IMG/VR virus record: IMGVR_UViG_3300014205_000004
Location: 32,001-96,000 of that record
Direction: 5' to 3' (one strand)
Length of the DNA: 64,000 nucleotides
DNA from: a virus
Lineage: Duplodnaviria; Caudoviricetes
The first letter of the stretch is position 1, and every line of letters starts with the position of its first letter. This document shows positions 8,815 to 47,215 of the stretch, piece by piece. The notes below the pieces were generated by a model, which saw only the letters and a program-made list of their open reading frames with translations, did no database searches and had not been told where the DNA came from. The translations under genes and the position numbers were made by a program.

Positions 8815-9134
8815 CAGACCGGCCCCACACCGTGGTTGCAGTAGCGCCCTACTGCCACGCAGTAGCTTGTCCTCGCTTGCAGCATGTGGAGCACGGCATC
8901 GATGTCGGTGAGGTTCTGCTCAGAGTCCTTCGAAGGGTTAATGAAGACGCGCGTGCCGTTGCTGAGGATGATGAGCGCCCACGTGTGGTCGCCGTAGTAC
9001 GCTACCTGCGCGTCGTCCTCGCCTTCGATCGCGATGACGTCCACGCAGTCGCGCTCCCACTTGTCGTAGCCACCGTCCGGGTCATCGATGGTGCGTGGGA
9101 ATGCTTCGAGGTTAACCGGTACGAACTTAATCAA
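8814..9134 (-). CDS. hypothetical protein
   Basis: TTG start after GGGAGG; IKFVPVNLE... Confidence 0.6.
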   Translation of the reverse strand: MIKFVPVNLEAFPRTIDDPDGGYDKWERDCVDVIAIEGEDDAQVAYYGDHTWALIILSNGTRVFINPSKDSEQNLTDIDAVLHMLQARTSYCVAVGRYCNHGVGPV

Positions 9135-10485
9135 CGCGACCTCCCATGGTCCAGCCCCGGACAGTCCGGGTTCCGCTGTTGGCGTCGAAGGAGCGGAAGC
9201 GAGCGCGCTCGGTCTCCTGCGTCGGTTCAGTGGCGTAGGGCACCGTGTTCTTGACGATGTAGTGCCACGTCTTCCCGTCGCCGAGCTTGCGCCGGGCGTG
9301 GTCACGCTCGCGGCCTTCGGGGTCGTGGTACATCGTCCCGCGAGCGTATGTCCCGCGAGGTGCGAACTTCGCGAGGGTGTTGTTGTTGAGAGGCAGCGCC
9401 ATGTCGGAGACGAAGCTCTCGGTTGCGGTGTGGTTGGTCCCGAGAAGGGATACCCGCTTGCTGCGGGTACGGATGTCCTTGGTGTTGATGCCGGCCATAG
9501 GGATGGCGAAGATGTCCCCCTGGCGCACAACTTCGAGGCCTTCGGCTTCGGCGACCTTGACTTCATGCGGCTTGAGGGATTCGTACGCCTCTTCGATGGT
9601 GTTCGCGTCCGTGTCGGGCAGCTGGCAGAGGAAGTAGAGCGGGCGGCGTTCTTGCTCGTCGAAGGAGCTGAGGAACTTGGCCTTCGCGAAGCGGTCGGGA
9701 ACCCAGGTCAGTTCCTCACTCATCTTGGTGCGCTCGTTGTACCGTTCTTCCCACGTCTTCGAGTCATCGTTGTTCAGGGCGGCGAGGCGTCGCTGGTAGT
9801 CAGCCATGTCGGGGTGCGTGTTGTGGCCGGGCTCAATCAGGTACTCGGCCTCGAACAGCGATCCACCCATCCAGTGCCGCCAACGCTTGTACGCCCAGCG
9901 ACCGTTGTGCCAGAAGAGCGTATGGTCGCCCAGCTTACGGTAGGCGACTTCGTACTCGTCGGCGGGGGTTACTGTTCCATCGTCATTCCACTCGAACAGC
10001 CAGCCGTCCTTGCTGTACGGGTACTCGATACCGTCCTGGAGCTTGCGGCGGAGAGTCATCGTGACTGTCCGAACGTCAGCCAGCTCCTCGTTGGAGACGT
10101 AGACGATCTCCTCCTCGGACCGGTCACTTTCGACCTGCAGCGGCTTGATTCTCTCGTGCGGGATGCCTGCCGCGTCCAGGGCGCTGAAGGGGAGGAGGAT
10201 GGACTTGATGCCGCTCCTCGTGATAGCGCCCCGAACAAACCCCTGATGGGAAGTCGTCGTGCTCGAATAGCGGTCGCTGTTGACGAGGAAGAACCCGTCC
10301 TTCCGCGTCCCTACGAGTTGGGCCAGGGGGAAGTGCGATCCGTAACTGAACACGGTGTCGACGTCCTGGCTTTGCCGCGAGCTGCCGCCGATCTTTGCGT
10401 TGACTGAGGCCGGCCGAAGGAACCGTGGCTTCTCCTTGCCGACTTCCTGGATGAATCGTTCGATAACCTGTTGTGCGCTTGTCAT
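9127..10485 (-). CDS. large phage protein of unknown function (452 aa)
   Basis: GAGGAG RBS; motifs FSYGSHFPLA, YSSTTTSHQ, RQGDIFAIP. Confidence 0.85.
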   Translation of the reverse strand: MTSAQQVIERFIQEVGKEKPRFLRPASVNAKIGGSSRQSQDVDTVFSYGSHFPLAQLVGTRKDGFFLVNSDRYSSTTTSHQGFVRGAITRSGIKSILLPFSALDAAGIPHERIKPLQVESDRSEEEIVYVSNEELADVRTVTMTLRRKLQDGIEYPYSKDGWLFEWNDDGTVTPADEYEVAYRKLGDHTLFWHNGRWAYKRWRHWMGGSLFEAEYLIEPGHNTHPDMADYQRRLAALNNDDSKTWEERYNERTKMSEELTWVPDRFAKAKFLSSFDEQERRPLYFLCQLPDTDANTIEEAYESLKPHEVKVAEAEGLEVVRQGDIFAIPMAGINTKDIRTRSKRVSLLGTNHTATESFVSDMALPLNNNTLAKFAPRGTYARGTMYHDPEGRERDHARRKLGDGKTWHYIVKNTVPYATEPTQETERARFRSFDANSGTRTVRGWTMGGRVD

Positions 10486-12043: not shown

Positions 12044-12303
12044 CGAACACCTCCCTAACTGTGTCGGCTATGGCTCCGATGAAGCCCCTGACTGCCTGCA
12101 CCAAGCAGACAACAGCGCCCGCTAATAGGGCGCAGATAATTACAGGCACCATACGTATGCCATACCTCTGCGTTGTGTTAATTCTCGTGTTGTGCGACTG
12201 TTGTGCCTTTGTTAAATCAGGGGTTTACCCATAGCTCCTGTTGTTTTTCAATGTTGTAACAACACGGCTTTTCGAATCTGAAAGCCCCTGAAGGCGTGTT
12301 GTT

Positions 12304-12765
12304 TTACGCGATGTGTAGCTCGCGAGCCTTTTGGTACCACTTTGGTGGGTTGCCGTGAGCCCACGACACGCTCTCGTACTGCCTCGTCGGCCCGTCCAGC
12401 GCTATCACGCGAAGGTAGGTTTTCCAGCGGTCGCAGAAGTAGAGCCACCCGCCCTCGTGAGGGCCCAGCACTATGCAGTCATCGCACAGGTCTTCGAGCT
12501 TCTGAGGCCACGCCAGGTAGGCGTAGTACGCGCGGACCTCGTCGTTATCCCAGAAGTTCTCGACGGTGTACTTCTGGCCTTCTTCGGTGAGTGACCCACC
12601 CAGGAAGGCGTGACAGCTGCCACACACGTGCGGACTGTCTGTCTCGCACCAGGAGAAGCACGCCGACATGTCGTTGGTGTTGATGCTGCCGTAGCGTGCT
12701 ACTGCGCAATCCTCGCAGAGGACGCTAGCGGCCTCGTCTACGTAAGCGATTGGTTCAAGACTCAT
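12304..12765 (-). CDS. Cys-rich hypothetical protein
   Basis: CEDC...CGSC; GGAGG RBS. Confidence 0.75.
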   Translation of the reverse strand: MSLEPIAYVDEAASVLCEDCAVARYGSINTNDMSACFSWCETDSPHVCGSCHAFLGGSLTEEGQKYTVENFWDNDEVRAYYAYLAWPQKLEDLCDDCIVLGPHEGGWLYFCDRWKTYLRVIALDGPTRQYESVSWAHGNPPKWYQKARELHIA

Positions 12766-14431: not shown

Positions 14432-15001
14432 TTACGCTGCCGTGAAGTCCGGGTAGTCAGCCGCGAGCACATCCCGCCAACGTGCACGCGTCTGCACTGC
14501 GTAGCTGGGAAACTTGGAGTGCCGCTTGGCTACCTCCTCCAACGATTCACCCCGGATGCTTGACAGCAGGCAGTCACGCTCAAACGTGGGCAGGCGCATG
14601 ATGCTTTGCAGCAACTCGCGCGTTTCGACGAGAGACGGGACGCTCGAAGGCTCTTGCGGCTCGAAGTCAAGGTCACCCAGGCCCGCCTCCGCGGTTTCCC
14701 GCATCTGGTCGAGTGACCGCGCGCTGATCTTCTGCTGGCCTTTGGTCGTGCGACCGCCCCACATGCGCATCTGGTCTATGACTTCGGCGTTCATGCGGCG
14801 AGCAGCGTAGGAGCCGAAGCCCCCACCCTTCTCCGGATCCCAGCCCCGCCCAGCCCTGACCAGTCCGGTCAGGGTGGCGGAGCGGAACTCATCGCGGGTG
14901 AAGTAGCTGTTCTTGTTGGCCCACTGCGTGGCCACCCTCCCAGCCAGGGGGATGTAGTCGACGATGATGCGCTGCTGCTCTTCGAAGGGGAGAGTGCTCA
15001 C
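14432..15001 (-). CDS. sigma-70 family (FliA/WhiG-like) RNA polymerase sigma factor
   Basis: Region 2 (GLVRAGRGWDPEKGGGFGSYAARRMNAEVIDQMR) and region 4 HTH (LPTFERDCL...GESLEEVAKRH); GTGA overlap start. Confidence 0.85.
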   Translation of the reverse strand: MSTLPFEEQQRIIVDYIPLAGRVATQWANKNSYFTRDEFRSATLTGLVRAGRGWDPEKGGGFGSYAARRMNAEVIDQMRMWGGRTTKGQQKISARSLDQMRETAEAGLGDLDFEPQEPSSVPSLVETRELLQSIMRLPTFERDCLLSSIRGESLEEVAKRHSKFPSYAVQTRARWRDVLAADYPDFTAA

Positions 15002-15192
15002 GCCACGTAGTCGAGTACGGCGTCGAAGTAGCCCTGATGCTTGACGACGAGCATGCGCTTGCCCGCTTCGCGGCCGCGCTGGATGTGCGGCAGCAGTTCC
15101 CGGTCGTAGCTGTAGTAAGCGAACGGCATGGCCGGCGCGATCCCGTCTTCGCTGATGTGGGCAATCTGACGCTTGGTGAGGTAGTAACTCAT
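14998..15192 (-). CDS. hypothetical protein
   Basis: MSYYLTKRQ...; ATGA overlap. Confidence 0.65.
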   Translation of the reverse strand: MSYYLTKRQIAHISEDGIAPAMPFAYYSYDRELLPHIQRGREAGKRMLVVKHQGYFDAVLDYVA

Positions 15193-15578
15193 GCTGCTCC
15201 AGCCTCCTGAAGGGTGGGTTCCTTGATGGGTTTCGGTCGTGATTTCTTGGCTGCGGGGTTGATTTGCAGCAAGCATTCGTCGAGGTTGCTGCCTGTGAAG
15301 CAGCCATGGTGCCGTGCGAGCTCACCTGGCGGGTAGTGGTTGGGGAAGATGGGAATCCTCACCTGCCAGAAGTTGAACGGATATGACGCGTTACCGCGTT
15401 CGTAGTCGCGCACGATGGTGAACACGAGGTGTTCGGTGCGCATGGTGTTTCCGTCGAAGCCATCGAACACTGCACAGTAGTTCCCGCCATATGAAGCGGA
15501 GAACCGTTTGGCCATGTTTCTTGCGGTGGCCCGATAGAGACGTCGTGTTCGCGTCGTCGCAAGCAGAGTCACGCTCAT
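15189..15578 (-). CDS. hypothetical protein
   Basis: 129 aa, coupled. Confidence 0.65.
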   Translation of the reverse strand: MSVTLLATTRTRRLYRATARNMAKRFSASYGGNYCAVFDGFDGNTMRTEHLVFTIVRDYERGNASYPFNFWQVRIPIFPNHYPPGELARHHGCFTGSNLDECLLQINPAAKKSRPKPIKEPTLQEAGAA

Positions 15579-15991: not shown

Positions 15992-16274
15992 GGAGAAGTG
16001 CAGAGGCAGTTGAGGGGTGGCTTACGCTTGCGTTCCACTGGAGGTCACCTGGCCCTTTCCGTTGGTAGTCCCTTGCGCGACATGCTAGTGCTGCCTCTCG
16101 TCATCGGCGGCAGAACTTGCAGATAGCGCCGCGGTTGGTGACGCGCAGGCTGGGACGGACGGTGAGGTCGATGTTGCCGCACTTCTGGCAGGTGTGGCGT
16201 TCGTTCTTGCTAAGGGTGTTCCTGGCCATGTTGTGTACCTCCGTGTACTAGGTGACGTTGAGGATGTTGTTGGG

Positions 16275-16631
16275 CTACCAGTCGATCACTGCCGCGATGG
16301 CGTCGAGCGTGTCGGCATTCCACTGGTGATCGCGGTCGCCGGCTGGGTAGAGGATGTTGCGGATGGCGTCGAGGCGGTCGTGGGCAGTCCAGGGCCGGGT
16401 TTCCGTGATGGCCTCGAAGCAGCGCATGTGGAAGGCACCAACGCCGCACTCAACCGCTGGCATGCCAGGGCCAATGATGTCCCAGCAGCCACGGCAGCCG
16501 AGGTCATACCACGAAGGGCTGAGGCCCACCCATTGCACGAGCTCTTTGAGGTCAGGCCAGCGTTCACGCGCCTCCGCGATTTCACCGCACGTGATGTGCT
16601 CGTGCTTGGCATGAGTCCAGCAGTAGCTCAT
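16275..16631 (-). CDS. Cys/His-rich hypothetical protein
   Basis: 118 aa, ATGA overlap. Confidence 0.65.
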   Translation of the reverse strand: MSYCWTHAKHEHITCGEIAEARERWPDLKELVQWVGLSPSWYDLGCRGCWDIIGPGMPAVECGVGAFHMRCFEAITETRPWTAHDRLDAIRNILYPAGDRDHQWNADTLDAIAAVIDW

Positions 16632-16897
16632 CGGTTGGCCTCACGTTTCGCCCTGCGCTCATCGCACCATTCACAGCCATCCCAGCAATAGCCGTTCTCG
16701 TCTTCGATGAACCTCAGCTGCATGTCCTGGACGGCATCGCTGAAGGCTTGGAGCATGGAGCGCACCATGTCTTCAGCGTCCTCGTCGTTGGCGTCGAAGA
16801 GCGCGTCAGCGATGCAGTCGTAGATGGCGCGGTACTCGGACGATCCCACATCGTCCGGGCTGTTGAAGCGGTCGAGGAGTCTCATGCGGTCGGCCAT
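16628..16897 (-). CDS. acidic hypothetical protein
   Basis: 89 aa, coupled. Confidence 0.7.
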   Translation of the reverse strand: MADRMRLLDRFNSPDDVGSSEYRAIYDCIADALFDANDEDAEDMVRSMLQAFSDAVQDMQLRFIEDENGYCWDGCEWCDERRAKREANR

Positions 16898-17084
16898 CAG
16901 TCAGCACACATCCCGCGCAGGTGGGTGAAGAAGAACGGGCCGAAGGAGAGGAGGAGACACTCGCCGCCAATGCAGTGGCTCTTCGTGCCGAGGCACCAGC
17001 TAAGGGGTGTGACGCCGAATTCGCAGTTGTGGATGCGTACGTACGCCTGGGTGAATTTGTGCCTGCGCAGTGTCTCGCGCATCA

Positions 17085-17300
17085 CTACCAGCCCATCTCA
17101 GCGAGGTCGGCGCAGGCGTCGCACTGGTAACCGCGTCGAACGTCGGCAGGGGTGAGCCGGTCAGGTCGCTTGCAGGTAGGGCAGGGAAGGTTGCGAGGGT
17201 TCCTCCGGCTTGAAGCACGGAGTGCGCTGTTGCCGCCAGGGTGTGCGAACTGCATGCGGTGTTCGAGCTCGTCCATGTGGTTGCTCTCGTGGATGGTCAT
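17085..17300 (-). CDS. small zinc-finger protein
   Basis: NPRNLPCPTC...GYQCDACAD. Confidence 0.75.
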   Translation of the reverse strand: MTIHESNHMDELEHRMQFAHPGGNSALRASSRRNPRNLPCPTCKRPDRLTPADVRRGYQCDACADLAEMGW

Positions 17301-17410
17301 CGGGTGTAGCCCCTGGCGCGGGCTTCGCGCCGGCCTTCACGGGTGTGGTTGAGCAGTTCCCGGAAGGTCATCGGGGTGTAGCAGGTCGGACAGGTGATTT
17401 TGTGTGCCAC
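17297..17410 (-). CDS. small protein (37 aa)
   Basis: AAGGAG RBS; MAHKITCPTCYTP...; stop overlaps the next ATG. Confidence 0.55.
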   Translation of the reverse strand: MAHKITCPTCYTPMTFRELLNHTREGRREARARGYTR

Positions 17411-17542
17411 GGGTTGAACTCCTTACGTGTGCGGGTTACTCGCCCCCATGTCCCTTTCCCCGAAGGACCATGTAGCCGAGGACGATGAGTGCCACCCAGA
17501 GGGTGCCTTGAAGGACGTGGCCGAAGGTGTCCAGGTCCATGC

Positions 17543-17722
17543 TTACCTCCGCGCCTTGATGCGCATGTCGTCGTGCAGGTGGTAGCCCTTGCGTTGAAGG
17601 GCCGCGGTCAGTTCCTTCTTGCTGGCGAAGTACAGGGGACAGCCGTCCAGCTGTGCGATTGAAGCGGCGCGGATGACCACGTATTGCTTTTCGGAGAGCA
17701 GGTAGTGAGCACGAAGGGACAA
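17543..17722 (-). CDS. small basic protein (59 aa)
   Basis: AAGGAG RBS, TTG start; MSLRAHYLLSEKQY... Confidence 0.55.
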   Translation of the reverse strand: MSLRAHYLLSEKQYVVIRAASIAQLDGCPLYFASKKELTAALQRKGYHLHDDMRIKARR

Positions 17723-17731
17723 GGTGACTCC

Positions 17732-17998
17732 TTAGGCTGTGGTTGCGGTACGGGCGTTGAGGCGCATCCACGCGCCGATGGGGTCGTTTCGCAGGGAGAT
17801 GTGGTTGAAGCGGTCGCGGAGGACATCGAGGATGTCCAGCCAGAGCATTACGTCGGCGTCACTGCCGTATTGCGCTGCTTGCCGGCCTTCGGTGTGTGCC
17901 TGTTGCATGGCTCGCAGCAAGACGGTCTCGTTGACTGCCTTGTCCGCGATCTCGATCAGCTGGTCGACCGAGTAGGGGATGAACGGTGCCTCACCCAT
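17732..17998 (-). CDS. hypothetical protein
   Basis: GGAGG RBS; MGEAPFIPY... Confidence 0.7.
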   Translation of the reverse strand: MGEAPFIPYSVDQLIEIADKAVNETVLLRAMQQAHTEGRQAAQYGSDADVMLWLDILDVLRDRFNHISLRNDPIGAWMRLNARTATTA

Positions 17999-18017
17999 TG
18001 AACAAACCTCCCAGGTG

Positions 18018-18176
18018 TCAGGACTCACAACGCGGGCAGAAGATGCCGTGCGCGTGGTTGAAGTGGTTCATGTTCACCGTGGCCAGGCCGCACCGCGTAT
18101 ACGCGTTGAAGCCACGGACGGTGCGAACACGGTGTATGACTCCGGTGTGGCCATATGCGGCGTAGCGGAAGGGCAC
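18018..18176 (-). CDS. small His/Cys protein (52 aa)
   Basis: GAGG RBS; MPFRYAAYGH...TRCG...CPRC. Confidence 0.55.
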   Translation of the reverse strand: MPFRYAAYGHTGVIHRVRTVRGFNAYTRCGLATVNMNHFNHAHGIFCPRCES

Positions 18177-18185
18177 GGTTGAACC

Positions 18186-18428
18186 TCAGTCCTCTACGAA
18201 GCGAACGAAGGCGTGGATGGCGTCCATCTGGAAGCCCGGTTCGTCAGTCGCGGATGTGCGTTGAAGGACGGCATCGGTGAGACGCCAGTGTGCGGTGACG
18301 GAAGGGACAGCCGGGGGCCAGTCGACTCCGACCAGCTGGTAACCCCAGCGCTTGAGCCAATCGTCGCAACAGGCAACGCACACGTCCTCGAAGAGCGTGC
18401 GCCCGGTGGAAGAGGAGACGCGGAACAT
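18186..18428 (-). CDS. hypothetical protein
   Basis: 80 aa, fits packing. Confidence 0.55.
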   Translation of the reverse strand: MFRVSSSTGRTLFEDVCVACCDDWLKRWGYQLVGVDWPPAVPSVTAHWRLTDAVLQRTSATDEPGFQMDAIHAFVRFVED

Positions 18429-18433
18429 GTGGC

Positions 18434-18598
18434 CTAGAAGCCGAGCATCTGCCGTTGAACGGCCCGGTGACGCATGATCAGGCCGCGGTCACGGGGGACT
18501 TCGGGGAGCGCGTGGAGGCACATGGCGCACACGTCCGGTTGAAGGGTCTGGCGGTTGCAGGCCGGGCAGCGAAGGGACACGGGGGGCAGGACAGCCAT
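18434..18598 (-). CDS. small zinc-ribbon protein
   Basis: GAGGAG RBS; CPAC...CAMC. Confidence 0.6.
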   Translation of the reverse strand: MAVLPPVSLRCPACNRQTLQPDVCAMCLHALPEVPRDRGLIMRHRAVQRQMLGF

Positions 18599-19127
18599 TG
18601 AAGAAACTCCTCGGAAGGAAACACGGGTTGAAGGGGGTAGGCGTCGAAAGCCCGTGGAAGCAGGATGCAGACGCCGCATGCAGCTGCCAGGCCAAGTCCC
18701 TCACGGGGACGGCGCAGGGTGAAATGCGCCAGGGGAAAGTGAGTCGGCCAGCTAACGCGTGGCCAGACGTGGGGGTCACGACTCCCCATACCGCACGGAC
18801 GCCGTGGAAGGGCGTATCTAGGTGCCCAGCGTCAGTCGGCTGCGTGGAAGGTTATGTGCGCTCGTTAGCGCTGTCCCGCGTCTGAACACAGTGTCACCTC
18901 CATATGTGACCGAAAGCGAAGACGGGTGGAAGACGGGTTGAAGGGTAGGCTTTGTGGGTGTGAAGTCAGGTAAGCGGGCCATGTGTGCGCATGTGAAGCC
19001 GAGCACACCCTACGCCCCCATTGAACAAACCTCCAAAGTCGTTGAACGGACGCTACGGTACACAGGTGACTACGGAAGCGTCAACTCCCTGTAGTCACAC
19101 GTGTGTATCCGCGTTGAAGGGCTGTGG

Positions 19128-19490
19128 TTAGGCCTTCAGAGGGATGTAGGGCGTGATGGTGACCTTGACCAGCTCGTTGCCGGTGAGGCCCGCAGCCTTG
19201 AGAGCTTCTCCCGAGAACACGTCCCGCGCAGGGATGGACGCGTAGACGGTCCCGAGGGTGACGTTGCCGGCCTGGCTCACACCAGCCGCGCTCAGGTTCT
19301 CGTCGCTCAGCCGGAAGGTGAAGGTCTTGCCCGTGCCTTCACCCTTCCCGCCGATGTTGATGCCGGTAGCTTTCGCCTTCGGCATCGCGACGCCCTTCGC
19401 CTTCGCCTTGATTTCACGTGCGGCCGCTACGCGGTCTGCCACGCTCATGTTGGCCATCTGGTCGCGAAGGGTAATCGTGTGGGTTGCCAT
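19128..19490 (-). CDS. basic protein (120 aa), probably highly expressed
   Basis: GGAG RBS, strongly biased codons; MATHTITLRDQ...KAKAKG... Confidence 0.8.
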   Translation of the reverse strand: MATHTITLRDQMANMSVADRVAAAREIKAKAKGVAMPKAKATGINIGGKGEGTGKTFTFRLSDENLSAAGVSQAGNVTLGTVYASIPARDVFSGEALKAAGLTGNELVKVTITPYIPLKA

Positions 19491-19902
19491 GGTAGGTAGT
19501 GACTCCGTTGGGTAGTCACGCCAGACTGTGCGCCTAGCGTGCTGGCCAGCCCATAACGCGTCCCGCACGTGTGTACGTACGTTTCGAGTTATCACGCAGT
19601 AGTCGACCACCAGACTTCAGGGAAGATCCTATAGCCCGGTGATTTACTACAAACGCGCCGCGCCCGGACGCGCCCCGAGCTTCGCTACGTGTGTAGCTCC
19701 ACCCGGTGGCGCATCCTGGCGCATATGGGGACTGGCCAGCGCGCGGGAAGTGCGCCCCTGGCCACCATGTGTAACCCCTATTCGGCAAGCGCGTACGTAT
19801 AGCGCTTACCCGTTGACTGCTGGAGCAACTCCAGGTGTGTCCGGGTAACTGCGAGGATCACGCAATCACCCAAATCGGGATGGTGGACGTGCTGCCAGAT
19901 TG

Positions 19903-20010
19903 TCACCGGCGCTTAGTCCTGGAGACGTAGCACGCCATTTCATGCTGTCGCCATATCGTCCACGGGACGCGCGTGCGGCAATGCGGACATTTCCACAAGT
20001 CTTCTGCCAT
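19903..20010 (-). CDS. mini zinc-finger protein (35 aa)
   Basis: MAEDLWKCPHCRTRVPWTIWRQHEMACYVSRTKRR; same AAAGCCAATG start context as CDS 20138-21091. Confidence 0.55.
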   Translation of the reverse strand: MAEDLWKCPHCRTRVPWTIWRQHEMACYVSRTKRR

Positions 20011-20030
20011 TGGCTTTCCCTGGCGCTAGT

Positions 20031-20137
20031 GTGCGCCTATCCGCCAGTCCCTCCAGGGACGTTCGGATAGGCGCACGTAACCCGCCAGGGTGATTGCCCC
20101 TGGCGGGTTACGTGCGGGTAGGGGTAGGGGTTAGGGG
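20031..20137. other. two overlapping perfect hairpins (13 and 18 bp) plus a G-quadruplex-like tract
   Basis: gtgcgcctatccg/cggataggcgcac; gcacgtaacccgccaggg/ccctggcgggttacgtgc; GGGTAGGGGTAGGGGTTAGGGG. Confidence 0.9.
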
Positions 20138-21091
20138 TTAATCGTTTGCGTAGTCTTGCGTGCTAGTGCCCGCTACCGTGCGGGCACGTTCCGCGCGTTC
20201 GAATTCCGCAAGCGCCTTACGTTCACGCGCAACGGCAGGCGAGTCTGCCCGCTTCGCGCGTGCGGCGCGCGCTTCACGTTCGGCTTGCCGCTTCAGGGTT
20301 TCCGCCCATCGGACAACATGCCAAAACATATGGCGTTTCGCGACCGCTTCCGCGCTTTCACCCTCAGGTGACATCCATGCATTATCAGCCGAAAACTGCC
20401 GTTTACAGCCGACAATCGGGCATGGCGCAACGGTCGTGAGACGTTCGCGCACTAGCACCCGAGACGTTTCGCGGGCAGGTGTGCCATGCGGGCAGACCTT
20501 GACGCGATGTGAGCGAAACACTCCGTCGGCATCCTGAGACACGCGATCCGTTTCCGGGCAGGTGCACGCATCGTCAACGGTTACCCGTTGACCGTCGTGC
20601 ACTAGCACCTGAGACGCTTCAGTCTGAAGTACCGCTACCCGCCATCGGGCATCGATCAAGTCCCATAGTGCCTGGACTTCGGGCAAGGGTGCCGTTTCCA
20701 ACGTGTCCAGGCGCATGTAATGCCCGTCAACGCGAGTAACCGTCGCACTTGATGGGTAGTGCGGAAACGGCATATCGTACCCGTAGCGGGTAACACAACG
20801 AGTACAAACGCATACAGCCGACACGTCGTGATCCCGATCGGAACGATCGGGACAAGTGAGCGTGTCCATTGCCGCATAGTCGACCCATTGCGTAGGCGCT
20901 TTCGGCCCGAACGCGGGTTTGGGGTGAGCAACGGAAACCGTTGTTCCGTTCCTACCGTCTCGCGCTTTCGGGGCGGGTACTTCGGGCAGGTGCACGGCGG
21001 GTACGTTGGCTTGCGCGTCACGTTCCACCTTGCGCCACGCCTTAAGGCTAGCGCCTTGCGTCGGGGTGCCCGTCGGGGCAGGTGCTTTCAT
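20138..21091 (-). CDS. first gene of the left arm; zinc-binding protein with C2H2-like motif
   Basis: AGGAG RBS, TAGAAT -10 upstream; CVCTRC and CPIVGC...HMFWH. Confidence 0.75.
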   Translation of the reverse strand: MKAPAPTGTPTQGASLKAWRKVERDAQANVPAVHLPEVPAPKARDGRNGTTVSVAHPKPAFGPKAPTQWVDYAAMDTLTCPDRSDRDHDVSAVCVCTRCVTRYGYDMPFPHYPSSATVTRVDGHYMRLDTLETAPLPEVQALWDLIDARWRVAVLQTEASQVLVHDGQRVTVDDACTCPETDRVSQDADGVFRSHRVKVCPHGTPARETSRVLVRERLTTVAPCPIVGCKRQFSADNAWMSPEGESAEAVAKRHMFWHVVRWAETLKRQAEREARAARAKRADSPAVARERKALAEFERAERARTVAGTSTQDYAND

Positions 21092-21296
21092 TGGCTTTGG
21101 ACTCCTATCGACTGGGATACCCCTATTCTAGGCGGGCAGACGACGCCTGGCCCTATGTGAGACACCACCGGCCACTCGCAACAAACTGTGAACCTAAAGT
21201 AACCCACACTGACTACCACGCCCTCGCCTGGCACAACATTTCGCGCACCTGAAGTAACCCTCAACCCCTTGTCATCCCAACCCAGATGCTGTCTAC

Positions 21297-21629: not shown

Positions 21630-22033
21630 CCGGCGAACGCATGACCGGCGTTTACCCTGCCTACGGGGCCGGCAAGTACTGGTGCGTCGAAAGCGAATGC
21701 AGCTGCAACCCACCCCGGCACTCCTACGTCATCGCCAGGGTCGGCGACGAACGGGTGGTCTACGGCGAGTACTCGGATGGGGGCACCTACGGGATCGGCC
21801 ACTACGAAATCAACCTCGCCCACGCGCGCTTCATCGCGCTCATGCCGACACTCCTCGACGCGGCGATGGATGCGGTCCTCCAGGGCCGGGTGGGCAGTGC
21901 TACCGGCACTTTGTGCCGGACGTGCATCGCCCAGGCGAAGGGACGCGCCATCACGGAGTGCTTCCCCTGGTGCGCGCTCCTCGACCTCGAACGCCTCATC
22001 AACCAAGCGCTCGGGGAGGCGTGGCACGAATGA
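21626..22033 (+). CDS. Cys-rich hypothetical protein
   Basis: ATGA coupling. Confidence 0.7.
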   Translation: MTGERMTGVYPAYGAGKYWCVESECSCNPPRHSYVIARVGDERVVYGEYSDGGTYGIGHYEINLAHARFIALMPTLLDAAMDAVLQGRVGSATGTLCRTCIAQAKGRAITECFPWCALLDLERLINQALGEAWHE

Positions 22034-22404
22034 AACACACCCCCGAACAGTGGGCCGTCTACGAGGCCCTCCTTGCGGACGTCGACGAGACGCAGTTCCT
22101 CATCCAGGCCCACACCTCGGCCGGCCCGGACGACTTCGACGACATCATCGCCGAGATCCCCTGGGTGTTCTTCGATTACCAGACCCGCGAGCGCCACGCC
22201 TACATGATCGCCGCCGTCCCCACGCTGCTCGCCGCAGCCGAGGCCCTCATGGACGAGCACCTGTGGGTGTACGGGCGTGAGTTGCGCACTCGGTCGTGCC
22301 GGCTTTGCCGCGCCATCGCGACCGGCAGAGATGTCGAGCACTACCCGAAGTGCCCCATCCCTGCCCTCGCATCCGCCATCGCCCTGACACGGCCCACCCC
22401 GTGA
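22030..22404 (+). CDS. hypothetical protein
   Basis: MKHTPEQW...IAAVPTLLAA...CRLC...HYPKCP. Confidence 0.7.
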   Translation: MKHTPEQWAVYEALLADVDETQFLIQAHTSAGPDDFDDIIAEIPWVFFDYQTRERHAYMIAAVPTLLAAAEALMDEHLWVYGRELRTRSCRLCRAIATGRDVEHYPKCPIPALASAIALTRPTP

Positions 22405-22607
22405 TGGGGGTGTGCGACGACTGCGGCACAGCCATCGGCGAGGCGTGGGTCACCTCCCGCGGCGTAGTCCTCTGCCTGCCCTGCAACCGCCAGCGCATCA
22501 CCAGGTACGCCGTGGACCAGGCCTGGGCTGAGGCGGATGAAACCACCAACGACCAGTACATGGAGTACATCCACCGGGTCCGCCGGACACAGGAGCGCAA
22601 ACAGTGA
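22401..22607 (+). CDS. small zinc-finger protein
   Basis: CDDC...CLPC. Confidence 0.65.
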   Translation: MMGVCDDCGTAIGEAWVTSRGVVLCLPCNRQRITRYAVDQAWAEADETTNDQYMEYIHRVRRTQERKQ

Positions 22608-22801
22608 AAGACCTCATCCACACCCCGAACGGGTACGTCAAGGTCAGCGAGATCGAGACCTTCCACGTCAAGTACTCGCCCGGCTACTACGACCACCTGC
22701 AGGTCGTCGTCACCCTCCGCAGCGGCCGCGAGTTCCCCACCCGCATGTTCGAGGACACCTTCCTCCGCGCGTACGAGCACGCCACCGGGGCCGGCCGCTG
22801 A
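22604..22801 (+). CDS. hypothetical protein
   Basis: AGGAG RBS, coupled. Confidence 0.7.
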   Translation: MKDLIHTPNGYVKVSEIETFHVKYSPGYYDHLQVVVTLRSGREFPTRMFEDTFLRAYEHATGAGR

Positions 22802-23016
22802 TGTCAGTCGTCAAAAGCATGCGCCGCCATCGACACGACTGGACCTTCGACAGGTTCGCGGGGACCGGTGACCTCTACTGCGCCGCCTTCAACTGGGTCC
22901 CGCCCTGCCAAGCAGAGCTGACCTTCCAGGACGTGCTCGACCTTTTCGCACTGCTCTACAGGCGCAGCGACGCCATCGAGGACACCCTCGTCAGAAAAGG
23001 CTACCAATATGTCTAA
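22801..23016 (+). CDS. hypothetical protein
   Basis: TGATG overlap. Confidence 0.6.
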   Translation: MSVVKSMRRHRHDWTFDRFAGTGDLYCAAFNWVPPCQAELTFQDVLDLFALLYRRSDAIEDTLVRKGYQYV

Positions 23017-44089: not shown

Positions 44090-44572
44090 ATGGCCGAACT
44101 CGGCGTCGCACAGGGCATTTCCGCCCAGAAGTTTGAGGTCCTGGACCACAAGGGGCTGAACGCGTCCACGTTCAAGTGCGCGTCCCTGTGCAGCCGGGGT
44201 GACCTCGTCTACATCTCGGCCGCGGGTGTTGTCACCATCGGCACGACCGGCCTCGGTGCCAATGCCCGGTACGCCGGCTTCATCGACACCAATGTCATCA
44301 CCCAGGCTGACCTTGACGTCCGCGTCATCGGCCAGCACGGCGACTACGCTGCCCAGACCACGGGCGTCGTGTCCGTCTGGCAGGAGGGCGAGTTCCGCGT
44401 CTCCAACGTTAGCGGTGTCATCGGCGACAACGTGGCCGTTTACCCGGCCGCGAACGGTGCCCTCTCGGCGTCCCAGACGGGTTCCGACAAGGCGGTTGGC
44501 TTCTCGATCACCGGCAACGGTGGCGTCTCGGGCAAGCCGATCACCATCCGCATCAGCAACTACAACGCCTAA
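44090..44572 (+). CDS. capsid decoration/cement protein
   Basis: Gly-rich beta protein immediately before the MCP; AGGAGG RBS. Confidence 0.75.
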   Translation: MAELGVAQGISAQKFEVLDHKGLNASTFKCASLCSRGDLVYISAAGVVTIGTTGLGANARYAGFIDTNVITQADLDVRVIGQHGDYAAQTTGVVSVWQEGEFRVSNVSGVIGDNVAVYPAANGALSASQTGSDKAVGFSITGNGGVSGKPITIRISNYNA

Positions 44573-44617
44573 ACCGTAAGGCGAGAGACCACCAAACCTA
44601 AGCAGGAGAACCAAGAA

Positions 44618-45598
44618 ATGCCCAACGCAGGAAACCGTGGCCTCTCCCTCGCGGACAAGCAGGCGCTGTTCGCGGAGGCCAAGGACACGCTCAGTGCCAG
44701 CGAGTTCCAGAATGTTCTGGCCACCGCTGCCCTCGTCCCGATCGCCGAGCAGGTGATTGAGACCTCGATCGTCCGGAAGCTCTTCCAGACGGACCGCTTC
44801 AGCCAGGGTGCAACGATTCCCTACACGCTGAAGACCCGGATGAACGCTGCCGCGATCATCCCCAAGTTCGGCATGGCTCCGTCCATGATCGTTCGGCAGA
44901 ACCGCATCCAGGTCGAGCCGTACATCATCAGCCACAAGCACGAGATCAACCTCATCGACATCGAGGACGCGAACTACAACGTGGTCGCGGACTCGCTCGA
45001 AGACGCCGGCAAGGAAGTTGAGATCAAGGAAGACCAGGAAATCCTGCGCCTCCTCTCGACCTACGCCCCGGACGCTGGTGGTGGTTACCCCTCCACGACC
45101 GAGACCATTACGGTCACTGCCGGTCCGGGCGGTCAGGGCACCATGCTCAGCGCGAACGTCTTCCGCGTCGGCTCCTCGCAGACCGCCCCTGCGGGCGGTG
45201 TCGCTGGCGATCCGACCATCCAGAACGTCCAGGTCATGCAGTCGCACCTTCGGGAAATCGGCTACGAGCCTGACCAGGTCCTGACCAGCCCGTGGGGCAT
45301 GGGCAAGTTCAACGGCCAGGAGCTCTTCCTTCACGCCGACAAGCGCGGCAACAGCCGCACCCTCGATACCGGCATGGTCACCGACAGCCTCGGCGTCAAG
45401 TGGACCTGGAACCGCCTGGTACCGCGCAAGTCCATCTACATCATGGACACCGGTGAGCTCGCCCGCTGGGTGGAGCGCAACGGCCTGTCCATCAAGACCA
45501 GCGAACGCGACCTCATGGCCGAGTGGTTCATGTGGGAGCGGGCTTGCCCCTTCCTCCGGAACGCCAACGCGTACGGTCGCATCATCTTCAACACCTAA
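44618..45598 (+). CDS. major capsid protein (HK97 fold)
   Basis: 326 aa, optimal codons, EIKEDQEILRLL backbone helix; followed by a terminator. Confidence 0.88.
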   Translation: MPNAGNRGLSLADKQALFAEAKDTLSASEFQNVLATAALVPIAEQVIETSIVRKLFQTDRFSQGATIPYTLKTRMNAAAIIPKFGMAPSMIVRQNRIQVEPYIISHKHEINLIDIEDANYNVVADSLEDAGKEVEIKEDQEILRLLSTYAPDAGGGYPSTTETITVTAGPGGQGTMLSANVFRVGSSQTAPAGGVAGDPTIQNVQVMQSHLREIGYEPDQVLTSPWGMGKFNGQELFLHADKRGNSRTLDTGMVTDSLGVKWTWNRLVPRKSIYIMDTGELARWVERNGLSIKTSERDLMAEWFMWERACPFLRNANAYGRIIFNT

Positions 45599-45622
45599 AC
45601 CGAGGTCTTCGGTCAGAACCCC

Positions 45623-45652
45623 AAGAGGGTGGGCATACCGCCCACCCTCTTT
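45623..45652 (+). terminator. intrinsic terminator
   Basis: aagagggtgggc-atacc-gcccaccctcttt. Confidence 0.8.
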
Positions 45653-45872
45653 GCATAGGGAAAGGGTCCACCACATGTCCGCCAATGCGGCCGGCAAGAC
45701 CACCATCACGACAGGCTTCTCGCGCATCGCCCGCAGCCAGAAGTCGAGCTTCGCTTCGAAGGCCGACTGCGACTGCCTCTGCCACCAGGGAGCGGCTTCG
45801 CACCTTGAGCCGTGCGTGTGCGTGAGTACCTCTGAAACAGCTCAGAACACGATTCTACAGGGGTAATGTACG

Positions 45873-46502
45873 ATGGCTGACAAAGCGGTCATGGACCTGG
45901 TTGTAGACCTCAAGTCGGACCTTCATTCGGTCCTTCAGGTCTACGTGCCTGAGAAGCTCATGGCCGTCGAGGCTGACCTTCAAACGTGCACGGCGTGGGA
46001 ACAGAACTGGTACCAGCGCCCGCCCGCAATCATCTACAAGAACGGCGTTCCCATCTCCAGTGGGTTCGACATCGACTACGACACGGGCACGCTGTTCTTC
46101 TCGGTCGACCTCCTGGTGACTGACCGTATTACGGCGGAGTTCTTCTACTCGCCCTTCACGGATGAGCAGCTGACGACATTCCTGGAGCGGGCGTGCGCCG
46201 AGGTCGGTGCCAAGCTCAGCCTCGCGGTAGACACCCAGGCCATCCCGGACGCACTCCAGGCGCTCGTTGTCGACTTCGCGTACGTGCGCACCTTCACCGC
46301 GGTCATGGCCGAGACGGCGATGTACCACAAGTGGATCCGCGACGGTGTCGAGGTACACAAGGACATGGTCACCAAGAACCATCAGATGGTCCTCGCCGAG
46401 AAGCGTGCCGGTATGACCGACAGCATCAACAGGCTCAGGCTCTCGGGCTTGAGCGGCGGTCAGGTAGTTGCCACCACGGCGACTGCTCAAGACCTCCTCT
46501 AA
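45873..46502 (+). CDS. head-tail adaptor protein
   Basis: IDYDTGTLFF beta domain plus FTDEQLTTFL helical domain; position. Confidence 0.65.
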   Translation: MADKAVMDLVVDLKSDLHSVLQVYVPEKLMAVEADLQTCTAWEQNWYQRPPAIIYKNGVPISSGFDIDYDTGTLFFSVDLLVTDRITAEFFYSPFTDEQLTTFLERACAEVGAKLSLAVDTQAIPDALQALVVDFAYVRTFTAVMAETAMYHKWIRDGVEVHKDMVTKNHQMVLAEKRAGMTDSINRLRLSGLSGGQVVATTATAQDLL

Positions 46503-46513
46503 GGAAAAGGCAA

Positions 46514-46837
46514 ATGACATCAGAGGAACGGATTCAGCGCGGGATGGCCCCGAGCTTCTACCCGTACGGCAACGTGCCGGGGCCAGACTACGACTTCACC
46601 GACTACGCAGACTACGTCGACCACCTTGTCGTCAACCTGGGCGGTCCGCTGCGCATCTTCCGTGCGGCGATGCTCGACCTGGTCAGCATGATCTGCGTGA
46701 ACCCCGAGCAGAAGAAGGCCGCGCGAGACGTCGTCTTCTCGAAGTTCAAGGAGAACGCTGAACTGCTCGAAGCGTGGTGCAGGTTCTACGGCTTCGACGA
46801 CGAGACCGTGCTCTGCGCCATCAAAGGGTTGGACTAG
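46514..46837 (+). CDS. hypothetical protein
   Basis: AAGG RBS; 107 aa. Confidence 0.65.
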   Translation: MTSEERIQRGMAPSFYPYGNVPGPDYDFTDYADYVDHLVVNLGGPLRIFRAAMLDLVSMICVNPEQKKAARDVVFSKFKENAELLEAWCRFYGFDDETVLCAIKGLD

Positions 46838-47215
46838 ATGTACCCGGATGGTCGCGGCATGTCGTTCGACACGGACGAGCAGACGTTCGTGTTCGACATT
46901 GGCCGAGTGCGCCAGCCTGCGGCGAACCAGAAGTTCCGCGAGGAGACCGTCCTCGCAGGCGTCCGGGGCTCCATCTTCTCAGCCATCTTCACACGCAAGC
47001 AGGTAACGCCGGCTGGCCCTATCTCCGAAGCATCCTGGGTGGCGCACGTGCGTCTTCCCGTGACCTTCGAGCCACGCACCGGTGACCGAATCATCAACGT
47101 CCGTGTCGCGCGCACAGGTCGTGCGGGCCGGTGGGAGACCCTCCGCATCGTGTTCGTCCAGCAGATGGGCGAGCGCGATTACCACCTGTGGCTCAAGGAA
47201 GACGTGGTCAAGTAA
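46838..47215 (+). CDS. head closure/stopper protein
   Basis: PRTGDRI beta-barrel pattern; position. Confidence 0.6.
   Translation: MYPDGRGMSFDTDEQTFVFDIGRVRQPAANQKFREETVLAGVRGSIFSAIFTRKQVTPAGPISEASWVAHVRLPVTFEPRTGDRIINVRVARTGRAGRWETLRIVFVQQMGERDYHLWLKEDVVK

Follow-up and report, generated by a model that had tools for sequence, protein, structure and literature searches.

The dense recurrence of one short word across the first genes of an apparent early operon raises the question of what reads it, and on which molecule. The locus lies in a window of 64,000 nucleotides (nt), bases 32,001-96,000 of the 124,496-base-pair (bp) genome IMGVR_UViG_3300014205_000004 (60.6% GC) of an uncultured virus from a landfill sample, where the hexamer GTTGAA and close variants form an array between positions 17413 and 19118. 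We find that this is a strand-polar, multi-copy word, that it represents a nucleotide-level and not a protein-level or compositional effect, and that it is under selection for high copy number and for one orientation. Unless the genome is named, coordinates are those of the window, and the copies are distributed as follows.

17413..19118, plus strand: array domain, with 13 perfect copies of GTTGAA
17413, 17593, 17804, 18057, 18105, 18178, 18260, 18454, 18538, 18627, 18937, 19041 and 19113, plus strand: GTTGAA copies
17658, 17997, 18597 and 19020, plus strand: ATTGAA variants, in the same orientation as GTTGAA
18406, 18654, 18804, 18844 and 18926, plus strand: GTGGAA(G) variants, in the same orientation as GTTGAA
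17209 and 17507, plus strand: weaker CTTGAA copies

Judged from the genome background, 0.35 copies of GTTGAA are expected per strand in the array, against 13 seen on the plus strand (P = 1.6e-16) and none on the minus strand within 17413-19118. A first-pass annotation, made from the letters of this DNA alone, had listed these 13 positions with an expectation below one copy, and every coordinate proved exact. The variants that it placed in the same orientation are each enriched on their own, with four ATTGAA (0.20 expected) and five GTGGAAG (0.17 expected). Taken together, the family [GA]T[TG]GAA reaches 22 copies where 1.22 are expected (P = 2e-20), with none in the opposite orientation. Every copy stands in the sense orientation of co-directional genes, all array genes lying on the minus strand. 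Over the 124,496 bases of the genome GTTGAA is found 35 times on the plus and 29 times on the minus strand; outside the array the counts are 22 and 29, without skew. The genome-wide hexamer scan that had been suggested as a check was run over all 6-mers and placed the array at the top of the non-tandem clusters, only a 15-bp tandem repeat at 1701-2039 being stronger. Note that this repeat, GAGGTCCGCGCCCCG, present in 22.6 copies with 85% matches, is the strongest k-mer cluster of the genome, and that its period of 15 suggests a pentapeptide-repeat coding region. The plus strand of the array consists of 35.5% G and 26.4% C (GC 0.62), and GAAGGG is also overrepresented there, with 10 copies against 0.6 expected.

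When the copies are aligned, information is confined to eight positions with the consensus S-G-TTGAA-S, amounting to about 12 bits, and the sense (leftward) mRNA reads S-UUCAA-C-S. Five copies extend to GTTGAAGGG. A two-element promoter on either strand is ruled out, as no second box occurs within +/-45 nt of the copies. The right border of the array is sharp: the final copy is situated 10 nt past the stop of the gene 19128-19490, and the next 1010 nt rightward, made up of this 363-nt gene and 647 nt of non-coding sequence, contain no copy where the density of the array predicts about 13. Left of 17,413 the word is back to background. With a mean spacing of 77 nt the copies are more even than random placement would make them (coefficient of variation 0.58 versus 0.94, P = 0.006), and helical phasing at 10.5 bp is not significant (power 1.5). 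Their density is highest where coding constraint is lowest, with three copies in intergenic spacers that total about 70 nt (about one per 23 nt), about one per 50 nt in the leader and about one per 130 nt in coding sequence. About half of the copies fall within codons, and the whole set occupies 1.7 kb.

Such an arrangement could in principle be a replication origin with iterons, or a packaging array of the pac/cosB type or similar to the short repeats adjoining the T7 terminal repeats. Dense direct repeats beside long non-coding stretches would fit, as would the strong hairpins and the G-run tract at 20031-20137. We nevertheless regard this explanation as improbable. The copies show no helical phasing and there is no AT-rich unwinding region; the words fall well short of the usual iteron length and, instead of being packed, are distributed over six genes. 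Moreover, the genes for the putative initiator (helix-turn-helix (HTH)/RP-C-like), DnaB and primase are about 40 kb away, and no terminase gene is nearby. The features of an iteron-type origin, namely phased repeats of 17-22 bp, an AT-rich region and an adjoining initiator, are thus not found here.

The location of many copies within genes also raises the possibility that the array has no function and arose by chance or recent duplication, or reflects composition or amino-acid content. Ordinary TTC AAC (Phe-Asn) pairs do account for three of the coding copies. Across the seven genes, however, TTCAAC occurs 7 times, against 2.4 when codons are resampled from genome usage and 3.4 under synonymous permutation, and 0 of 5000 codon-aware simulations reached 7. 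The four other coding copies have the form xTT-CAA-C and are built from CTT or GTT, each used for 0.11-0.12 of its amino acid, followed by CAA (0.15). The earlier argument from atypical codons against a protein-level effect is therefore borne out, the enrichment surviving both codon-aware nulls. Duplication or paralogy was rejected as the source, as matches in a self-alignment of the region do not exceed 18 nt and no paralogues exist among the small proteins; a tandem repeat was likewise tested and rejected. Considering a P of about 1e-16 to 1e-22 against the genome background, the first rank among non-tandem 6-mer clusters and an orientation of 22 to 0, an array without function is hardly credible.

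Other candidates were tried and discarded. Quadruplet (UGAA) decoding of the plus strand, prompted by a tRNA-like gene, finds a longest open stretch of 615 nt with 3 quadruplets, and a conceivable antisense partner, the TTCAAC cluster at genome positions 12,242-12,425, consists of Phe-Asn codons in plus-strand genes. The array has no match in Rfam, and its form has not been described before. The suggestion of an undescribed multi-site recognition system stands as far as the polar, nucleotide-level word without Rfam match or origin by duplication is concerned, whereas the reader proposed along with it, the product of 19128-19490, is unsupported.

The array extends exactly over the promoter-proximal 1.7 kb of the leftward early operon: besides the leader it takes in six tiny genes and, of a seventh, only the ribosome-binding site. 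In the predicted direction of transcription, the features are:

19055..19084, minus strand: weak candidate leftward promoter TTGACG-N18-TACCGT, picked out by eye; a consensus scan was negative
18599..19127, minus strand: non-coding leader of 529 nt with 10 copies, and no open reading frame (ORF) with coding-like codon use
19010..19021, minus strand: 3-codon mini-ORF (ATG GGG GCG TAG) behind a copy of the gene f start module
18434..18598, minus strand: gene c, 54 amino acids, zinc-ribbon-like; the word overlaps its start (TTCAATG)
+55 and +139 of gene c, minus strand: internal copies, CTT CAA C and GTT CAA C
18186..18428, minus strand: gene d, 80 amino acids; internal copies at +17 (variant) and +163 (CTT CAA C)
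18018..18176, minus strand: gene e, 52 amino acids; start GAGG-TTCAAC-C-GTG and two internal TTC AAC (Phe-Asn)
17732..17998, minus strand: gene f, 88 amino acids; start region GGAGGTTTGTTCAATG and one internal TTC AAC
17543..17722, minus strand: gene g, 59 amino acids; internal copies at +59 (GCT TCA ATC) and +124 (CTT CAA C)
17436..17540, minus strand: gene h, 34 amino acids, small and hydrophobic; weak variant CTTGAAG at 17507
17297..17410, minus strand: gene i, 37 amino acids; start AAGGAG-TTCAAC-CC-GTG, the left border of the array

The minus-strand ORFs of the array have a GC content at third codon positions (GC3) of 0.76-0.84, Shine-Dalgarno sequences and positive codon scores. By the same measures both 18,599-19,127 and 19,491-20,137 are non-coding. 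The fold of the leader is slightly more stable than that of shuffled sequences, on the minus strand only (z = -2.06). At five of the eight translation starts in the array the word ends 0-3 nt before the start codon, and this succession of Shine-Dalgarno sequence, TTCAA and start is found nowhere else on the minus strand of the 124-kb genome. All five cases reported in the first-pass annotation are real, with the qualification that the one at 19021 opens the 3-codon mini-ORF and not a gene. Its start module is an exact copy, over 18 nt, of that of gene f (19017-19034 and 17994-18011).

The best reading of these data, which we rank first while holding it tentatively, is that of a cis word on immediate-early mRNA, serving coordinated translational shut-off or decay. 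The reader of C-UUCAA-C on early mRNA would be a protein that acts in trans and depends on many copies close together; it could repress translation, as T4 RegA does, or be an endoribonuclease like RegB. If it bound or cut the message at intervals of about 77 nt, and 0-3 nt ahead of start codons, the immediate-early genes would be silenced together; the motif-free gene just upstream (19128-19490) would escape. We lean towards a reader at the RNA level because the word is short, because the borders of the array coincide with gene limits and because copies are placed next to start codons. Eight nucleotides are the usual length for the targets of RNA-binding proteins or RNases and are short for an operator. 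There is no G in the sense-RNA word, and predictions leave it unpaired in the G-poor mRNA, with an accessibility of 0.30 compared to 0.125 for GC-matched hexamers. RNA as the molecule that is read, the kind of reader and the effect downstream are what we infer here.

Several observations weigh against an RNA-level reader. The predicted accessibility of the word is no higher than with shuffled flanks (0.25 versus 0.28), so that the context is not selected for exposure and composition in a G-poor message explains the value; selected exposure of the word was accordingly dropped as a candidate. On the sense strand of the other 121 ORFs TTCAAC is not avoided (31 copies, 30.3 expected), which makes a potent single-site RNase unlikely, and a reader would therefore probably need clustered copies. 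No gene for an RNA-binding protein or RNase was recognised near the array with Pfam or PHROG, and the placement in spacers and the even spacing fit a reader at the DNA level equally well.

A candidate for the reader had been seen in the gene that marks the right border.

19128..19490, minus strand: orphan gene for a Lys/Ala-rich protein of 120 amino acids, with no copy of the word

This gene has the best codon adaptation in the region. Its product is a singleton among 5.8 billion clusters, has no match in Pfam, PHROG or PDB and yielded nothing usable in the ESM Atlas; an AlphaFold model, with a mean predicted local distance difference test score (pLDDT) of 44.6, is too poor for a structure search. 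These results speak neither for nor against a role as reader. The product of 20138-21091 (317 amino acids) is also an orphan and a singleton in large protein libraries. Among the neighbouring genes no HTH repressor and no DNA-binding protein was matched by Pfam or PHROG, distant folds being possible. Directly after the stop of gene 20138-21091, at 20031-20137, there are two overlapping strong hairpins (22-nt arms with 86% and 19-nt arms with 100% complementarity), followed by a G-run tract on the plus strand that contains GGGTAGGG twice. The word ACGTGTGTA occurs at 19099, 19567 and 19687 of the plus strand, its only three copies in the genome, all on one strand and in the non-coding stretches around gene 19128-19490; the copy at 19099 is part of the perfect palindrome CACACGTGTG. 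This word may be an operator.

In the genome, genes are directed leftward (minus strand) from about position 21,100 of the window through the start of the contig, and rightward from about 21,500. Products of the leftward block include ribonucleotide reductase, a family A DNA polymerase, primase, DnaB, an initiator-like HTH protein, UvsW-like and UvrD-like helicases, an FtsK/SpoIIIE-type motor, ThyX, RtcB and a large serine recombinase. The contig has a terminal overlap of 123 nt that falls inside a gene for 385 amino acids, and its ends therefore represent an assembly break. Detectable kin are distant only: a protein of 452 amino acids (9127-10485) shares 28-48% identity with proteins of Gordonia CQ and Microbacterium EG phages, and the identity of the FtsK-like motor is about 36% to its counterparts in Cluster J mycobacteriophages and 40-44% to cellular FtsK. 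These matches mark the virus as actinobacteriophage-like, with no close relatives among sequenced phages. Some 2 kb downstream from the array, a protein of 297 amino acids (14432-15325, minus strand) gives a weak match to Sigma70 region 2, at an E-value of 5e-4 that falls below the Pfam cut-off; it may be a phage sigma factor, and no relatives of it were found in IMG/VR or JGI metagenomes. An 849-residue gene at genome positions 98833-101382 (plus strand) has Hint, intein-splicing and LAGLIDADG domains and appears to carry an intein. The phage has a second repeated word, CTGAGTAC, separate from the array, with 10 copies against 1.4 expected at 21301-51795 of the window; eight of them are on the plus strand in the rightward block, and the first copy is located in the divergent intergenic region.

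Close relatives of the array region are absent from the collections searched. Megablast against the phage collection gave no match, and IMG/VR scans with five queries, four nearby proteins and an 18-nt word, returned chance matches only. One groundwater metagenome contains contigs identical to the window, and no RNA data set was listed as containing the sequence. In a wastewater strain, 8 differences are listed for 16,000-19,130 and none of them falls in a copy of the word, against an expectation of only about 0.7. Divergence of this strain amounts to about 5% at 19,640-20,000 and about 2.7% in gene 20138-21091. The near invariance of the array and its genes next to a divergence of 3-5% at 19640-21100 suggests either a mosaic history or strong constraint. 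Phage Bachita showed only a 14-bp tandem repeat inside a gene. In phage OneinaGillian the published palindromes are present, and GTTGAA occurs only once per strand in the 32 kb examined.

A word of fixed orientation in putatively transcribed genes calls to mind the stoperators of Cluster A phages. Following this precedent, a phage repressor bound to asymmetric sites would block elongating RNA polymerase in an orientation-dependent manner, during lysogeny or at an early-to-middle switch. The single orientation with respect to transcription (22 copies versus 0) and the many asymmetric copies within a transcribed block correspond to the hallmark of these systems (PMC9283540, PMC5559632), a large serine recombinase makes a temperate life style possible, and the array adjoins a divergent control region. 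Cluster A stoperators, though, are 13-14 bp long and intergenic, number about 20-30 per genome, are spread over both arms and have a known repressor of the L5 gp71 type (PMC9283540, PMC5559632), whereas here 22 copies of an 8-bp word, half of them in codons, are concentrated in 1.7 kb and neither the length nor the genome-wide intergenic spread is seen. In addition, a 12-bit DNA site would be titrated by any host chromosome, and no HTH repressor is recognised among the neighbouring genes. Roadblocks of this kind seem unlikely to us, less so than an origin or packaging site.

Somewhat more plausible, if still doubtful, is a polar DNA signal, GGTTGAAGGG on the plus strand, that would load or orient a pump of the FtsK/SpoIIIE/TraB type in the way of KOPS, SRS or clt, or would act like Chi on a helicase-nuclease entering from the right. 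The phage encodes a protein suited to the first version.

21736-22998 of the genome, minus strand, outside the window: FtsK-type motor of 420 amino acids, with FtsK_alpha and FtsK_SpoIIIE domains (E = 2e-46), no membrane part and no gamma domain

The array word is 8 bp long, G-rich, strictly polar (found in this form on the plus strand only) and free of helical phasing, all of which it has in common with the words of FtsK-family pumps, and the plus strand of the array is unusually rich in G. The B. subtilis SRS, quoted as GAGAAGGG (PMC8190038), ends in the six bases of the enriched GAAGGG. A further precedent is provided by the clt loci of Streptomyces plasmids, direct 8-bp repeats that are read by the FtsK-like TraB (PMC4447253). 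On the other side, FtsK_gamma (PF09397) is absent from the motor and from the six-frame translated genome at E <= 10; the motor has only about 25 C-terminal residues past the end of its alignment to a cellular FtsK, an end that falls just short of the gamma domain of the latter, and its gene is located about 27 kb from the array. KOPS and Chi have a skewed distribution over whole genomes, but this word forms a local cluster and is unbiased outside it, and no genome-wide skew converging on a dif-like site is found. The KOPS-type word GGGNAGGG occurs 12 times on the plus and 4 times on the minus strand of the genome without forming a cluster. The clt repeats are tightly clustered beside or inside traB, in contrast to the 1.7-kb spread of the array. 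Mycobacteriophage Omega, which has a homologous motor, lacks a comparable array in the right-hand 50 kb that was scanned, and the contig ends of the present genome are an assembly break. The narrower proposal that the array is a clt/KOPS-like loading and orienting track for the gamma-less pump of the phage, or for host FtsK, is rather unlikely. If it were true, the virus would move or position its DNA directionally by means of a chromosome-segregation motor, for example into one of the daughter cells or, in a filamentous actinobacterium, through the septa of the host. As a separate observation, leftward genes in the right arm of Omega (about 44,500-46,900 of the Omega sequence scanned) contain GATAGA eight times in 1.8 kb on one strand (P ~4e-10), a weak cluster and possibly a codon-level effect.

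What sets the array apart is a word of 8 nt that recurs about once in 77 nt, exacts a measurable cost in rare codons where it falls in genes and is confined, with sharp borders, to the apparent first genes of the early operon. This pattern points to a reader for which polarity matters and which depends on many copies close together. Acting on RNA, the reader would represent a new early shut-off system resembling RegA/RegB in a phage of high GC content; on DNA, the array would guide a tracking enzyme locally. In either case the word is a precise experimental handle, as its 22 sites are open to synonymous recoding.

For an RNA-level reader the closest parallel is found in T4, where the endoribonuclease RegB (GGAG) and the translational repressor RegA recognise short RNA words at the initiation regions of early genes. 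The targets of both on early mRNAs allow a block of genes to be shut off jointly. The array shares with them a short word at initiation regions, found at five starts. It differs in sequence, most of its copies are away from starts, and no homologue of RegA or RegB was recognised in the phage.

Repeated cis words are otherwise well represented in actinobacteriophages by stoperators, SAS and the motifs of Clusters EC, EG and O, most of them without known function. SAS and ESAS, from Cluster K mycobacteriophages and Cluster EF Microbacterium phages, are conserved words at ribosome-binding sites (PMC7302621), and the array resembles them in placing an unusually conserved word at the ribosome-binding sites of a subset of genes. 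SAS, however, is 13 bp long, includes the Shine-Dalgarno sequence and is found upstream of starts only, whereas the array word follows the Shine-Dalgarno sequence and precedes the start codon. Such a position next to a start is held by only 5 of 22 copies, the majority being located in genes or in the leader. Cluster EC has an 18-bp asymmetric repeat and Cluster O has 17-bp repeats. Cluster EG Microbacterium phages have an 18-bp inverted repeat, GATCAACCNNGGTTGATC, upstream of their right-end leftward genes, which we confirmed in OneinaGillian; these sites are intergenic only, number 8-10 per genome and lie 14-22 bp upstream of starts. Like the Cluster EG and Cluster O repeats the array is situated at the head of leftward-transcribed genes, and with the EG phages the virus has a distant homologue of the 452-residue protein (9127-10485) in common. 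GGTTGAAG begins with GGTTGA, the EG half-site, a resemblance that we take as a lead only and that may be a coincidence, the EG sites being palindromic and intergenic and the array word neither. The array thus belongs with the repeated cis words of actinobacteriophages.

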